From: Nitrosopumilus sp. | GTDB taxonomy: Archaea; Thermoproteota; Nitrososphaeria; Nitrososphaerales; Nitrosopumilaceae | DNA: 64,000 bases | NCBI GenBank assembly: GCA_965218695.1 | Contig: OZ244651.1 | Span: 416,001-480,000, forward strand | Reading direction: 5' to 3' | In this document: piece after piece, positions 3,554 through 32,695 of the stretch | How positions within the stretch are numbered: position 1 is the stretch's first letter | Layout of the letters: every line of letters starts with the position of its first letter | Position numbers and translations under genes: made by a program | The notes under the pieces: generated by a model | Told to the model about the DNA's origin: nothing | Seen by the model: the letters and a program-made list of their open reading frames with translations, nothing else | Database searches by the model: none

Positions 3554-4468
3554 ATGCCTGTCCGCACCGAACTGCATTGTCACAACTCATACTCAAACTT
3601 TCACCTCGGTATCGATGATCCGCCGTATGACTGCGACATATCCGTAAGGGATCAGCTGGAACGCTCCTGCAGCCTGGGCCTTGATGCAATCTTTGTCACA
3701 AACCACAACACGCTTGACGGATACTCGCAGATCCTGGAGTACAGAAACGACCATGAAAAGTTCAAAGGCATCCGCGTCTTTCCGGCAGAAGAGGTTACGA
3801 CCGATTCCGGGGCACATGTCATTGCATACGGGATACGCGAGGCCATCCCTGCAGGACTCGGCATTGAGGAGATAATCGATCGTGTGCGGCAGCAGGGCGG
3901 AGTCTCGTCTGCGCCCCATCCGTTCAGCCTGCTCGATGCCCTGCGCGAGGATGCAGGAAGATGCGACATGGTTGAGGTCTTTAACAGCAACAACGTGGAC
4001 GTGATCTCAAATGCGCGTGCCACGCAGTTTGCACTGGACAGGGGCATGACACAGGTGGCCGGCAGCGACTCGCACATACTCTCGACTTTGGGGCGGTGCG
4101 TAAACGTCATAGATTCCGAGGACTCCCTTGATGACGTCCTGCACGCCATGCGGCACGGCAGGATAAGGATCGAGCAGACCGGATACGCCATGCAGAAGGA
4201 GGTCCTTGATCACCTCCGGTACAAGGTCAACAGCTCGCGCGAGTATATGACAAAGTACATCTCTGAGCACTACCCAAACTCAAAATGGCTGCTGAACCTG
4301 ATGCTGAGAATCTACGATGCTGATCCGGACAGCCACCTGTGGGGCATGTTCTACAGGATCGCACTTTACATCATGCGGAGGATATCAAAGAAGGTCAACT
4401 ACCAGGACATGGATCCGGGATTCATGAAGGAGAGAGACCTGGCCACCATGTTTCGGATGGCGCTTTAG
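3554..4468 (+). CDS. PHP-domain metallophosphoesterase
   Basis: ELHCH, TNHN, AEEVTT, APHPF, GSDSH motifs. Confidence 0.85.
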   Translation: MPVRTELHCHNSYSNFHLGIDDPPYDCDISVRDQLERSCSLGLDAIFVTNHNTLDGYSQILEYRNDHEKFKGIRVFPAEEVTTDSGAHVIAYGIREAIPAGLGIEEIIDRVRQQGGVSSAPHPFSLLDALREDAGRCDMVEVFNSNNVDVISNARATQFALDRGMTQVAGSDSHILSTLGRCVNVIDSEDSLDDVLHAMRHGRIRIEQTGYAMQKEVLDHLRYKVNSSREYMTKYISEHYPNSKWLLNLMLRIYDADPDSHLWGMFYRIALYIMRRISKKVNYQDMDPGFMKERDLATMFRMAL

Positions 4469-27951: not shown

Positions 27952-29019
27952 TCAGGATTCGGCGATGCGCTTTATTCTCTGGAATTTTCGTCTGACAAAA
28001 TCCCTGTCCTGGGTCCTGTACTCGGCGTCGTGTTCAAGCATCTCCCAGACCCATTCGAGCATCTGCCTGGCCACGGCAACCCTTGCCTTCATGGGCCCTA
28101 TGCGGGCTGCCAGTCTCTGGTAGCGTGCCCCTATCCGGGCATCGTGCCGGACTGCGACGAAGGCGGCCTCGACCATGGCGCGGCGCAGCCAGACAGAACC
28201 GCGCTTTGTGATGCCACCGGTCCTGACTGTCTCCCCGCTGTTGCGGTGTTTTGGCGCCAGGCCTGCATACGAGACCAGCTTTTCGGCGTTGGCGAACCTC
28301 TTGTGGTCGACTATTTCGGCAAGTATGGTTACTGCCGTGACGTATCCTATTCCGGGTATGGTCATGATCAGTCGTGCCCGCCTGTCGCTCATCGCAATCC
28401 CGGCTATCTTTTTTTCAAATTTTGACACCTGCTTTAGTATGGTGTCGATGATGGCTAGGTGCGACTGCACCGCCATGCAGTCAACCTCCCTCAGGGGCAC
28501 GTCCTGCAGCCACTCGATGCCCTGCTCCGTAAACAGCCCCCCTTTGGGCTGCTCGTGCGGGTATTTGGCCAGGATCGCGTGGATGCGGTTCTTGGGGCCT
28601 GAGGCGGACATCTTCATGTCCAGGCGGGTGCGGGTCAGTTCGCGCAGATCCCGCGCGGGCTTGTCGGCCACGAACGATTCGGGGATCATGTCCAGCCTGC
28701 ACAGGTCTGCCAGCTTTTCCGAGTCGGCCTTGTCGTTTTTGTACACGGTTTCGGTTATTATCTTCGTGTTGTGCGGGTGGGCCAGCAGGGTGTCGATGCC
28801 CGCATCCTCGAGCATGTCGTGCACGACTATCCAGTAGTTGGCCGTGGATTCGCAGACGGCCGTGGCCGGCACGTACCCTTCCTTGTGGATCATCTTGATG
28901 AATCCGGTTATTCCCCGAACGTTGTTGTCAAATTCAGTCTGCTTTAGTATGTCCTTGGTACTTCCCTTGATCGTTGTAACGCATTTCTTTTTGTGAACGT
29001 CTATTCCAACGTAATACGT
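27952..29019 (-). CDS. IS110-family DEDD recombinase (ACG at the expected start position)
   Basis: GIDVHK, CESTA, KNDKAD, IPGIG, YAGLAP..NSG; GGAGGTGA ribosome site followed by ACG-TAT-TAC. The ORF track extends to 29070. Confidence 0.9.
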   Translation of the reverse strand, partial: TYYVGIDVHKKKCVTTIKGSTKDILKQTEFDNNVRGITGFIKMIHKEGYVPATAVCESTANYWIVVHDMLEDAGIDTLLAHPHNTKIITETVYKNDKADSEKLADLCRLDMIPESFVADKPARDLRELTRTRLDMKMSASGPKNRIHAILAKYPHEQPKGGLFTEQGIEWLQDVPLREVDCMAVQSHLAIIDTILKQVSKFEKKIAGIAMSDRRARLIMTIPGIGYVTAVTILAEIVDHKRFANAEKLVSYAGLAPKHRNSGETVRTGGITKRGSVWLRRAMVEAAFVAVRHDARIGARYQRLAARIGPMKARVAVARQMLEWVWEMLEHDAEYRTQDRDFVRRKFQRIKRIAES

Positions 29020-29055
29020 GTTATCACCTCCTTTGCAGTGTATCGGACCCGACCA

Positions 29056-29160
29056 GCGGAAAACTCCCATTCACCGTCAAAGCGGTATTTGACCATCCGC
29101 ATACCTTGAGTCACTCTAACTAACGCCCTCATACGTGGCAAGTTGCACTCGACTCTCAGG
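29056..29160 (-). ncRNA. Predicted bridge/seek RNA of IS110 element A
   Basis: Two hairpins with internal loops. Segments GUGCAACU and UAGUUAG match the two flanks, and AUGGGAG matches the element end. Confidence 0.8.
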
Positions 29161-29264
29161 TCCAACAGGGTAAATGCCATGATCGCCGCTATAACGGCAA
29201 CACATGGCGTCTAACTACGTTCGCCACTACACGCTATGAAACAAATGATGCCCGAACCGGCCAT

Positions 29265-29346
29265 GAGTTTCCTACAAGACAGTCCAAAAATGAGGGCTAA
29301 GATTCATAGCTAAAACCACATTTTTGGACAAGTTTTTAGGAAAGTC
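29265..29346. other. att-like site, central (82-bp imperfect palindrome, core AGATTCATA)
   Basis: TTTCCTA..GTCCAAAAATG-AGGGCTA-AGATTCATA-GCTAAAACCA-CATTTTTGGAC..TAGGAAA; core at 29300..29308. Confidence 0.65.
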
Positions 29347-29585
29347 GCGTTTTGTTTTGGCGTCGTCGGATTCATTGCATGTAGTGCAACATGGCAGGAC
29401 TTAAACCCCTATGGGCAACAACGTGCCGCCTACCTGTCAAACATGGCTAACGTATACCAAAAGTGAAAAGTTGATGCGATTGTCACATATTTTACCACAT
29501 CTAAAGTTATACCAATTTCACGTCCCACAGTCAATGAAGATCAAGACGATGTTGAAAAGATACGCCGCTGAGACAGACTGCGATA

Positions 29586-30839
29586 TACCAAAAGTGAAAA
29601 GTTGATGCGATTGTCACATATTTTACCACATCTAAAGTTATACCAATTTCACGTCCCACAGTCAATGAAGATCAAGACGATGTTGAAAAGATACGCCGCT
29701 GAGACAGACTGCGATACCAAGGACCGCATGATGCTGATCATCAGAGTCAAACGTGATGGAATAACCATGAGGGATTCTGCAAAATCCCTGGGAAAGTCAG
29801 CCTCGTGGGGCTACAAGTGGCACGAGCGCTACCTGGAAGTCGGATTTGACAGGCTGGGAAACATGCCGCGCTCCGGCAGGCCGACCAAGGCGAGCAAGGC
29901 AGACATGAAGAAGATCAGAAAGGCCGCATGCAGGAAACCTGTCTGGACTGGCATGGAGATGCAGCAATACATCCAACAGAAGACCGGAGTGAAGTACGAA
30001 CTCGGATATGTGCGCCAGATACTGCGCGGGTGGGGCTATTCCCAAAAGGTTCCCGTAGGAAAACATGCAAGAAGGGCGCCTGACGAGGAGATCAGGAAAT
30101 TCCAAAAAGAGATGCCAGAGCTTATAAAAAAAAGAACAGTGAAGGAACAGTCGTAGCGATACAGGACGAGTCCATAGTAATCTCCGATGCGCGGCCGCGA
30201 AGACGCGGCTACACCAGGAAGGGAATACGGGCGTTTTTCACGTACACCGGCTCACACTCCAAGACGATAATCCATGGACTAATCACCACGGACGGCAGGG
30301 GCATGTTCCGGCAGTACGATGCGTTTACCAAGGACACCTTTGAGGACTTTCTAAGGCAGGCGATGTACAGGTTCAAGAAGATCTGCCTGATCATGGACAA
30401 GGCCTCCCAGCACAGGGCATCAAACATACGCAAACTGCTTGATGGCACAGACGGCCTGGAGATAATCTTCCTGCCAACTGCGACCCCGGACCTGAGCGCC
30501 ATAGAGACGTACTGGAGGGATCTCAAACGGGCAGTGCTTGACGTGCCGTACACCAGCCTGAGCATGCTCCGCGAGGCGATCACCAGGTACGCGAGGTACA
30601 AAAAACCAAATCTGGTAGTCGAGAATTTTCTGTACAGGGCCATCTAGAACGACATCAAACCACACCGGATCCACGCCGCCTAGCGTGTGCCATGCACGGC
30701 GCATCAGAGCATGCAATGTCTAATGTTCGGGGCGTCTTTTCTCGTCATTTGGGAATTCAACGCACCTCGTAATTTCCAGAGATGGATGTCGCATCAAAAA
30801 TTTATGAGCGATTTTGATATGAATTTTTCATTGCTGGTA
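29586..30839 (+). mobile_element. IS630-family element, inner intact copy
   Basis: TIRs TACCA..A.TGAAAA.TT.AT; TA duplication at 29584..29585 and 30840..30841. Confidence 0.9.
29665..30647 (+). CDS. IS630 transposase in two frames joined by a probable -1 frameshift at A8 (30126..30133)
   Basis: HTH part (RSGRP) ends at 30156; the -1 frame gives QDES, MDKASQH, PDLSAIE. Confidence 0.8.
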
Positions 30840-30982
30840 TACCAAGGACCGCACCTATGTTAACCACCCCGGAGCATTTACCACGATAATCCCGCTATAT
30901 TTCCGGTCTGTGCCTGAGTTGCACGGTACATCATTTATAGCTGACGCTGGGCAGCATGATCAGGATGCAGGATCCGCCAGGT

Positions 30983-32074
30983 TCACTTCTGGCGCGCCCT
31001 TTTCATCTTGGCCAGCTTGCGTCTGTACAGTCTTTCGTTGTGTGACGAGTATATCGTCCTGGTATTGAGCATGTGCCATGCTATGGTGAGCATCTTGTTT
31101 GCCACCACCACTACGGCAGGCCCGTGCTTGTCTGCATGTCTCCTGCGTGCAGACTCGTATACTGCCGCCATCCTGTCATCATGCCGCACCGCGGTGTTTG
31201 CAGCCTCCATCATGGCCCAGTTGACAATTTTGTTGCGGTCAATCTTTTTTATCCTTCCAGTATACAGCTGGTTGCCGGACTGGTAGACTACGGGACACAT
31301 GCCTGCCCACGAGACCAGGTTTTTCGGGCTCTCAAACCTGGAGATATCCCCTATCTCTGCTGCAAGCAGCAGTGCGGTGTATGTTCCCAGACCGGTCAGG
31401 CTTGCAAGAATCTCTGCGTCCTCGTTTTGTGCCGCCTCCCTGTCAAGGCATTCGTCCATGACTGCTATCTCCTCGGTCAGGTTTCTCATCTGCCGGACGC
31501 ATTGCTGGAGCACCATCTCGTCATGTGCAGAGCCGAGGCCTGCGGATTCCAGCTGTTCTGTTGCCTTTGCAGAATACATATCAGTGGCCTCCACTGCCAC
31601 GTCATACCTGTCAAGCAGGGCGTGGACGCGGTTTATCACGCGCGTCCTGTCTTGGACGATCCTTATCCTCTGCCTGACCATCTGCCTTATCCCCCTGATG
31701 TTGGCAGGCGGCACGTAGCACTCGGGTATCATGTCCATCCTCAACACCTGTGCAATCTTCTCTGCATCCACCCTGTCTGTCTTTTTTCCTGTCTTTGTAA
31801 TTATGGCCATCTTGAACGTGTTGGCAAGCTTGATCTCTATTCCTGCACCCTCAAATGCGGCATATGTGATGTTCCACATGTTGCCCGTAGTCTCGCATGC
31901 CGCGCGGCATCCCCTGCGGGCGTACCTGCGTGCGGCCTTTTCTGCAAACTCCTTTGCGCTTGCTGCCGTGTTTGGGTACTGCCCTCGTTGGAGGACCTTC
32001 CCCCTTTTGTCGACCACGCACACGTCACACTTTTTCTTTCCGATGTCTATTCCTATGCTTATGTTTGTGTTCAT
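30983..32074 (-). CDS. IS110-family DEDD recombinase
   Basis: GIDIGK, CETTG, KTDRVD, LTGLG, WAGMCP..QSG; GGAGGTGA ribosome site. Confidence 0.92.
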   Translation of the reverse strand: MNTNISIGIDIGKKKCDVCVVDKRGKVLQRGQYPNTAASAKEFAEKAARRYARRGCRAACETTGNMWNITYAAFEGAGIEIKLANTFKMAIITKTGKKTDRVDAEKIAQVLRMDMIPECYVPPANIRGIRQMVRQRIRIVQDRTRVINRVHALLDRYDVAVEATDMYSAKATEQLESAGLGSAHDEMVLQQCVRQMRNLTEEIAVMDECLDREAAQNEDAEILASLTGLGTYTALLLAAEIGDISRFESPKNLVSWAGMCPVVYQSGNQLYTGRIKKIDRNKIVNWAMMEAANTAVRHDDRMAAVYESARRRHADKHGPAVVVVANKMLTIAWHMLNTRTIYSSHNERLYRRKLAKMKRARQK

Positions 32075-32115
32075 CCTTTTCTATCACCTCCTTTCGGATA
32101 TCTTGGTAGACCGGA

Positions 32116-32219
32116 AGCTGCACTCACCTATCAGGGCGCGAGGCCCAATTATACAGCAGCTCGGATTGCCCCATTCATGATCAAGGGCGCGTAGCCCATA
32201 CGGTACGAGGGGTCGATCC
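32116..32219 (-). ncRNA. Predicted bridge/seek RNA of IS110 element B
   Basis: Stems GGAU..CCCC/GGGG..AUCC and AGCUGC/GCAGCU, each enclosing a GGGC-N5-GCCC hairpin. Loop strands match target (ACCGUA, AUCAUG) and donor (UGUAU, AUAGGUG). Confidence 0.8.
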
Positions 32220-32695
32220 ACCGCAGCACCTGCGCCGGGGTGGTTTACATGTATTCATGATGCTGATCATCAGAGTCAAACGTGATGGAATAACCATGAG
32301 GGATTCTGCAAAATCCCTGGGAAAGTCAGCCTCGTGGGGCTACAAGTGGCACGAGCGCTACCTGGAAGTCGGATTTGACAGGCTGGGAAACATGCCGCGC
32401 TCCGGCAGGCCGACCAAGGCGAGCAAGGCAGACATGAAGAAGATCAGAAAGGCCGCATGCAGGAAACCTGTCTGGACTGGCATGGAGATGCAGCAATACA
32501 TCCAACAGAAGACCGGAGTAAAGTACGAACTCGGATATGTGCGCCAGATACTGCGCGGGTGGGGCTATTCCCAAAAGGTTCCCGTAGGAAAACATGCAAG
32601 AAGGGCGCCTGACGAGGAGATCAGGAAATTCCAAAAAGAGATGCCAGAGATTATAAAAAAAGAACAGTGAAGGAACAGTCGTCGCGATACAGGAC

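Follow-up and report, generated by a model that had tools for sequence, protein, structure and literature searches.

In the present study a window of 64,000 nucleotides (nt) from Nitrosopumilus sp. (assembly GCA_965218695.1, contig OZ244651.1, positions 416,001 to 480,000 of the forward strand) was analyzed with regard to one insertion sequence (IS), here called element B. Overall, the best explanation is that element B encodes, upstream of its transposase gene, a bridge (or seek) RNA guiding a DEDD/Ser recombinase with a TG core, which we hold as very probable. The host is an ammonia-oxidising archaeon of the class Nitrososphaeria, and B is an intact element of the IS110/IS1111 superfamily; its anatomy, its empty target site, the covariation of both RNA loops with flanks and element ends and the covariation of the stems were observed. 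RNA-guided targeting as such is likewise held as very probable, on the support of relatives: across them both loops covary, one with the flanks and the other with the ends, and changes in the stems are compensatory. As the kind was described in 2024, B is a real but expected new example of RNA-guided ‘bridge’ recombinases, a new member and not a new kind. Coordinates are window positions unless marked as own genome (C1), and background on known systems is taken from excerpts of the literature (PMC11208160, PMC11208158, PMC11187229, 10.1101/2024.06.21.599552, PMC13343696).

A sequence-only reading of the window had placed an IS110 element with its own bridge-like RNA at 30848..32261; the element lies there, but this span includes a few flank bases, and the element proper occupies 30854..32257. 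It had further stated that the target is known exactly from an uninterrupted copy of the interrupted IS630 DNA, and indeed GGACCGCATGATGCTG, with 0 occurrences expected, is found once in the window, at 29721..29736 within the adjoining IS630-family copy. At the filled site the plus strand reads GGACCG-CA and then CCTATGTTAACC (starting CCTATG) at one junction, from 30847, and CATGTATT and then CA-TGATGCTG (TGTATT before CA) at the other, from 32248. When empty and filled site were compared, the dinucleotide CA alone, exactly 2 nt, was common to the target and both junctions and any other target duplication was absent; therefore 1,404 bp were inserted, one CA counted. The following features define the element and its site:

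30854..32257, minus strand: element B, 1,404 bp with the second core copy (32256..32257) included, from junctions read directly and from contig departure points
29721..29736, plus strand: unoccupied target site GGACCG-CA-TGATGCTG, located in the IS630 copy without an insertion, a single exact match in the window
30852..30853: core dinucleotide copy at the right-end junction, CA on the plus strand and TG in element orientation, from filled versus empty site
30857..30876: right-end arm of the subterminal inverted repeat, 20 nt, 90% complementary to 32231..32250 (18/20)
32231..32250: left-end arm of the subterminal inverted repeat, partner of 30857..30876
30983..32074, minus strand: transposase/recombinase gene, open reading frame (ORF) of 363 amino acids with DEDD and Ser motifs (D10, E61, D100, D103, S266)
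32258..32670, plus strand: helix-turn-helix part of the transposase frame of the interrupted IS630-family copy, downstream of the insertion (ORF 32257..32670)

The core had been described as CA rather than CT. This is correct for the plus strand and for a frame centred on the RNA, in which the core is CA and its IS621 counterpart CT, but in the element's own orientation it is TG; at the left junction TG was present in 26/27 parsed relatives and AG in 1/27. The transposase gene is preceded by 183 nt and followed by 129 nt of non-coding DNA. The insertion point between CA and TG coincides with the first ATG of the IS630 transposase ORF 32257..32670, whose equivalent in the intact copy matches Pfam HTH_32/HTH_33, followed by an ORF matching DDE_3. 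In the own genome the empty 16-mer site occurs in 15 copies, and the 10-mer ACCGCATGAT in 20 copies versus about 5 expected.

The transposase is intact and carries both halves characteristic of the IS110 superfamily, the DEDD RuvC-like N-terminus (PF01548, DEDD_Tnp_IS110, 3.5e-29, 102 bits) and the Transposase_20 C-terminus (PF02371, 1.8e-21, 76.8 bits), and it reached 233 bits against the NCBIfam model NF033542, ‘IS110 family RNA-guided transposase’, with a curated cut-off of 140. The catalytic DEDD and Ser residues are present in the motifs GIDIGK, ACETTG, KTDRVDA and YQSG, which align with IS4321 and ISEc21; in IS621 the catalytic residues are D11, E60, D102, D105 and S241 (Hiraizumi 2024). 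Relatives with solved structures were the transposases of ISCro4 (E 5.3e-9) and IS621 (9.3e-8) only.

In the 183-nt leader, which runs from the left end to the start codon, a closing stem surrounds two modules, each composed of stem, internal loop and hairpin. The two parallel modules around GGGC-N5-GCCC hairpins that had been read on the minus strand at 32219..32116 are both there, and the loop strands contain ACCGUA, AUCAUG, UGUAU and AUAGGUG as claimed. Module 1 reads CCCC / UCGUACCGUAU / GGGC-UACGC-GCCC / UUGAUCAUGAAU / GGGG and module 2 GAGCUGC / UGUAUAAUU / GGGC-CUCGC-GCCC / UGAUAGGUGAGU / GCAGCUU. In order along the RNA, the parts are:

32214..32222, minus strand: closing stem P1, 5' strand GGUGGAUCG, pairs with 32105..32113; both-side changes in 7/9 pairs across relatives
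32198..32208, minus strand: target loop, 5' strand UCGUACCGUAU; ACCG-UA pairs with TG-CGGT (top strand, core and right flank, element orientation), with one U-G wobble
32185..32197, minus strand: inner hairpin of the target module, GGGC-UACGC-GCCC, from fold and consensus
32173..32184, minus strand: target loop, 3' strand UUGAUCAUGAAU; AUCA-UG is a same-sense match to left flank and core
32147..32155, minus strand: donor loop, 5' strand UGUAUAAUU; UGUAU pairs with ATACA, left-end positions 2-6
32134..32146, minus strand: inner hairpin of the donor module, GGGC-CUCGC-GCCC, from fold and consensus
32122..32133, minus strand: donor loop, 3' strand UGAUAGGUGAGU; AUAGG-UG is a same-sense match to right end and core
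32105..32113, minus strand: closing stem P1, 3' strand CGGUCUACC, partner of 32214..32222
32085..32091, minus strand: GGAGGUG, Shine-Dalgarno-like, unchanged in 17/17 aligned leaders

The final AAU of the target loop (3' strand) matches left-end positions 1-3 in the same sense and is handshake-like in this respect. A search of Rfam gave no match to the leader at gathering thresholds, the best hit at E up to 10 being an unrelated snoRNA model with 16.8 bits. Exact matches between the leader and the target in B were five, of 6-7 nt, where about 1.8 exact 6-mers are expected by our own arithmetic. Three of these fall outside the loops, UGCGGU at RNA position 33, TGATCA at 75 and UACCAAG at 150, and were treated as chance. 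UGCGGU (32220..32225, RNA 33-38) has the same sense as core and right flank, and UACCAAG (32102..32108, RNA 150-156) is complementary to right-flank positions 6-12; both were set aside because they are located at or beside the closing stem. With matches near chance and a fold z-score that is not significant for B alone, support comes from relatives, across which the agreement clearly exceeds chance.

Such relatives are numerous. The own genome holds 11 more loci with transposases 43-47% identical to B, some of them broken, in addition to three copies of another IS110-family element, here called element A; a scan of species-representative genomes gave 16 loci, 12 of them at 62-72% identity in Nitrosopumilaceae or Nitrosopumilus assemblies. 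Paralogues of the own genome are labelled e and other loci L; the distant loci L033-L035 and L039 (27-36% identity) and L032, with a rearranged leader, were left out of the analysis. The leader layout was the same as in B in all relatives examined. Alignment of 17 distinct leaders (alignment A1) led to a consensus with a 9-bp closing stem enclosing both modules, in which 97.5% of cells pair versus 29-55% with partners slid, and in which both-side changes occur at 10 pairs versus 1-4 with partners slid; 0/500 shuffles attained the observed values. Seven of the 10 compensated pairs belong to the closing stem, and the two outer stems are nearly invariant, so that they speak neither for nor against the structure. 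The variable positions fall in the loops, while stems are invariant or compensated. The single-sequence fold gave the stems no support on its own; the compensatory changes across the 17 leaders support the structure.

Loops, junctions and flanks were parsed in 28 elements, and one representative per guide type entered the permutation tests; excluded were duplicates with the same guide (e213, e243, e1622, L026, L028, L029, L031, L043, L044, L062, L063 and L067) and, for the count of the 5' strand, also the near-duplicates e777, L027 and L045 as well as nine types for which no right flank was available. Read in the orientation of the element, loop 1 has in its 3' strand the left flank, the core and then AAU, as in B (AUCA-UG/ATCA-TG, RNA before DNA), e912 (GUUCG-UG/GTTCG-TG), L037 (GUUUC-UG/GTTTC-TG) and L030 (GUAAC-UG/GTAAC-TG). 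Across 19 guide types it agreed with the five core-adjacent flank nt at a mean of 4.45/5 for cognate and 1.96 for non-cognate flanks, a score attained by 0/100,000 permutations. The 5' strand of the same loop is the complement of core and right flank, e.g., AAUUACG-CA/TG-CGTAATT in e192, AUUAUG-CA/TG-CATAAT in e239, CAGAU-CA/TG-ATCTG in e2257, GGUUGAA-CG/TG-TCCAACC in L030 and ACCG-UA/TG-CGGT in B, with 4.00 for cognate and 2.08 for non-cognate right flanks in eight guide types (attained by 3/100,000 permutations); in an earlier, smaller set 0/20,000 permutations attained the score for either strand.

Loop 2 followed the ends of the element itself. In its 3' strand the base before the core equals the last right-end base in 19/19 elements (5 G, 14 A), and position 4 of its 5' strand pairs with left-end position 3 in 26/27 elements (T:A in 3, C:G in 11, G:C in 2 and a T:G wobble in 10). 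Judged by eye and uncounted, the 3 nt after the core in the 3' strand show no consistent match to the right flank, as a donor-loop handshake would. Covariation of guides with flanks among homologues, to which the sequence-only reading had looked for a check, is present with 19 and 8 guide types, and together with the covariation of guides and ends it supports the reading that the target loop reads the flanks and the donor loop the ends. A decayed relative at a contig end, L036 (2310..2485 and 3660..3700), has AG in place of UG/TG in both 3' loop strands and at the left junction, whereas TG seems to stand at the right junction, and the flank is not matched by the 5' guide. This relative may represent a core changed in nature, to CT in the RNA-centred frame.

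The mechanism proposed would run as follows. The RNA, made of a 9-bp closing stem and two modules, would read the target flanks with module 1, the target loop, and in an equivalent way would read with module 2, the donor loop, the abutted junction of right and left end in an excised circle, which is predicted as ...ACATAGG-TG-AATACATG... in element orientation. Strand exchange by the recombinase would then take place at the shared dinucleotide, which is TG as the element reads and CA on the plus strand, with the outcome that B is placed at ACCG-CA-TGAT, the first ATG of the IS630 transposase frame. For binding of RNA and protein, the circular intermediate, the promoter and the chemistry we argue by analogy with IS621, ISEc11 and ISEc21, and natural variation among the relatives suggests that B may be programmable and active.

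On metatranscriptome-library contigs of another study a copy 90-99% identical to B is joined to different DNA exactly at the element ends. At 30850/30851, on the left, three sequences other than that of the window were seen, and at 32261, on the right, one; these flanks keep ..CG-CA and CA-TGAT beside the core. At the level of contigs, this fits the deduced ends and recent mobility.

Several observations weigh against the RNA-guided reading or its details and are best considered together. Folded as a single sequence, the leader of B gave z = 0.50, with 130/200 shuffles folding equally well or better, and the consensus structure is 14 kcal/mol costlier than the minimum free energy structure of the full leader; the two guide matches of B span no more than 4+2 nt each, one of them with a U-G wobble, and are statistically near chance. 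Among the relatives, the fit to the right flank is poor in the e2050 type (2.5/7 in register, apparently shifted by one base) and the L024 type (2 mismatches in 7), the permutation figures overstate independence because the relatives are kin, and the 5' strand of the donor loop is, unlike in IS621, unpaired with the core (AU in B, AC in paralogues). Contigs from three RNA libraries of one study cover leader and gene, which is not proof of transcription; in contigs from other samples, contigs only, no circle junction was seen. B is single-copy in its own genome despite the 15 identical 16-mer sites left empty, and the placement beside IS1111 leans on just two named reference transposases. The fold and the chance-level exact matches of B, as well as the Shine-Dalgarno-like GGAGGUG after the structure, could be taken to mean that the protein alone picks the target and that the leader is a structured 5' untranslated region regulating transposase expression, its resemblances to target and ends being chance or a by-product. 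We regard this as very improbable, since the loop strands change with the flanks in 19 and 8 guide types and the donor strands track the ends in 19/19 and 26/27 elements, variability lies in the loops with stems kept or compensated, and RNA guidance was demonstrated experimentally in members of the family, according to the parts of the studies drawn on (Durrant 2024, PMC11208160; Siddiquee 2024).

The same covariation would be expected if the matching stretches worked as DNA, for example in a synapsis of end and target, and the RNA-library contigs just mentioned are not proof of transcription. Such a role at the level of DNA is more improbable still: compensatory changes in three helices of a single strand maintain G-U and G-C pairing, the U-G/G-T wobbles in guide-flank pairs are sensible only for RNA-DNA or RNA-RNA pairing, and RNA-library contigs, a weak point, do span the leader. 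More serious, although unlikely, is the suggestion that RNA and element are real and this particular copy is immobile, a relic fixed in one IS630 copy. Its single copy beside so many empty sites would be explained, and its target guide has a U-G wobble at the core and just 4 flank nt per strand. On the other hand, the frame of 363 amino acids is open with all catalytic motifs, the subterminal repeats are intact at 18/20 positions, both donor strands still match the ends, and other samples contain copies of 90-99% identity at different sites. An upstream bridge RNA guiding the recombinase remains the preferred explanation for B.

As to the position of B within the superfamily, its features point in two directions. 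In IS621 the 5' loop strands pair with the bottom strand (Durrant 2024, PMC11208160; Hiraizumi 2024), in a locus laid out as 5' LT-core-RD ... LD-core-RT 3' whose left end expresses the RNA (Hiraizumi 2024), whereas for seekRNAs of the IS1111 family the match to the top strand is placed 5' of that to the bottom strand and for ISEc21, of the IS110 family, the reverse is described (Siddiquee 2024). In B and all relatives the 5' loop strands are complementary to the top strand, i.e., in IS1111 order and opposite to IS621, a point absent from the sequence-only reading. As a control, IS4321 from plasmid R751 showed a 10-mer complementary to the target top strand at non-coding position 97 and then same-sense 7-mers at 124-126; this is the order of B. 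A second control, ISEc21, did not recover by exact 6-mers the order given in the paper. Subterminal repeats are absent or 2-3 bp long in the IS110 group and 7-17 bp in the IS1111 group (Durrant 2024, PMC11208160; Siddiquee 2024), the latter being marked, with few exceptions such as ISMtsp17, by these repeats and a downstream non-coding region (Siddiquee 2024), as far as the excerpts go. Of the traits of the IS110 group B shows the long upstream non-coding region, and neither the bottom-strand-first order nor repeats of at most 2-3 bp (20 nt at 90%); of those of the IS1111 group it shows the strand order and subterminal repeats, slightly above 7-17 bp in length, and not the downstream RNA. With blastp the transposase shares 24% identity over 341 amino acids (65-71 bits) with IS4321, and only 20 bits with ISEc21; going by these two named references, it may be related over its full length to the transposase of IS1111. 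On these sequence characters, B is best classified within the IS110/IS1111 superfamily as an element whose logic is of IS1111 type and whose RNA lies upstream, its IS1111-like side following from strand order, 20-nt subterminal repeats and transposase similarity, its IS110-like side from the upstream RNA.

Compared with the systems described, B resembles IS621 in its DEDD and Ser recombinase, in an RNA in the left end upstream of the gene, in a first internal loop that reads the target and a second that reads the donor, in a target-loop 5' strand of 7+2 nt with the core within the pairings, in bases after the core on the 3' strand that match partner DNA (in B the handshake-like AAU), and in a 2-nt core without further duplication. 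It differs from IS621 in that its 5' strands pair with the top and not the bottom strand, in a TG/CA instead of a CT core, in repeats of 20 nt versus 2-3 bp in the IS110 group, and in a covarying closing stem around both modules where IS621 has a separate 5' stem-loop; the proteins are scarcely alike (35 bits). With the IS1111 seekRNA elements ISEc11, ISKpn4 and ISPa11, as described in the excerpts, and IS4321, it shares a complement of the top strand preceding the same-sense segment as well as subterminal inverted repeats, and of the two references tested the IS4321 transposase was nearer to B than that of ISEc21. Unlike in these elements, in which the RNA region lies downstream, that of B is upstream (183 nt, with 129 nt downstream), and whereas in many IS1111 elements donor-binding bases are reported to lie in a multi-loop (Durrant 2024, PMC11208160), B has two simple internal loops. 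ISEc21 is like B in its upstream non-coding region and, going by the part of the paper drawn on, in a target that is a conserved spot within the transposase gene of another IS (IS3-family; in B the start of the IS630 frame), but unlike B in the opposite strand order stated there, in a protein without detectable similarity by blastp, and in a leader without a match to R1, the covariance model built from the 17-leader alignment.

Model R1 matched 20/151 sampled genomes of the class (own genome included, as well as one unpublished genome, G132, which entered the count without use of its sequence) in 12/48 genera, with up to 18 copies per genome and roughly 100 matches, and gave no match in the Halorubrum (L072), Sphingobium or ISEc21 loci. 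Haloarchaeal elements of the IS110 family (ISHvo10, named in the excerpt of Siddiquee 2024, and L072 from Halorubrum) are like B archaeal and equipped with a long subterminal repeat; L072 is 34% identical to B over 77% of the length, with a 23-nt repeat at 91% and non-coding stretches of about 200 nt at either side, but lacks a match to R1. In the literature consulted, RNAs of this sort were found described neither for Nitrosopumilaceae nor for archaeal elements of the IS110 family, although the supplementary tables of Durrant 2024 may already include elements that are archaeal or related. It is conceivable, though on balance doubtful, that B and the approximately 100 relatives in Nitrososphaeria form a distinct archaeal bridge-RNA clade of hybrid layout, with IS1111 order and long repeats and with the RNA in the 5' leader under a covarying closing stem of its own. 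A move of the bridge RNA from one end to the other between the IS110 and IS1111 groups was proposed by Durrant et al. (PMC11208160, in the part drawn on); if the clade is real, it would be a living intermediate of this translocation and would supply about 19 naturally reprogrammed target guides as a series, together with a non-CT core.

Element A, at 27952..29400 of the window and at C1:1720508..1721621 and C1:2318797..2319909 of the own genome, is an IS110-family element with a transposase of 372 amino acids. That B is independent of it, as had been proposed, agrees with transposases only 32% identical and with the weak match of R1 on the leader of A (29024..29167, 20 bits, E 0.0045). By eye, the strand order in that leader is as in B: its 3' strand agrees in sense with the left flank and the left-end start, its 5' strand with the complement of the right flank.

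Some further observations concern elements nested in or beside one another. In paralogue e393 (C1:393453..393760) the nesting is reversed, an IS630 copy having cut off the first approximately 50 nt of the left end. The B-like paralogues e2050 (insert C1:2048084..2049305) and e192 (C1: about 194250..195470) measure 2.75 kb versus 1.5 kb; in both, an additional IS of 1,222 bp, whose inverted ends read GGTGTGTCCTAG, separates the transposase gene from the right end and encodes a DDE_Tnp_1/DUF772 transposase of 320 amino acids. The left end of the intact IS630 copy (29450..29720) carries a tandem duplication of about 133 bp, ataccaaaagtgaaaagttgatgcg... being present twice, and in the interrupted copy, at 30838, TATACCAA is joined straight to GGACCGCATG without the segment of about 133 bp. 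At 29602..30647 the IS630 transposase is split between two frames, helix-turn-helix at 29602..30156 and DDE_3 at 30303..30647; an A-run lies near 30127, and the split could be a programmed frameshift or a pseudogene.

The interest of B lies in its hybrid layout, its archaeal host and its natural series of guides. RNA-guided bridge recombination, worked out so far in bacteria, is found here in active-looking use in ammonia-oxidising archaea, and the reading of guides explains the nesting of these elements inside other insertion sequences. For annotators, a covariance model is of use for an RNA without an Rfam family. The layout mixes traits that separate the IS110 and IS1111 groups and bears on the movement of the RNA between element ends, and the own genome and the relatives together represent a natural reprogramming series, in which one scaffold carries about 19 target guides with known insertion sites.

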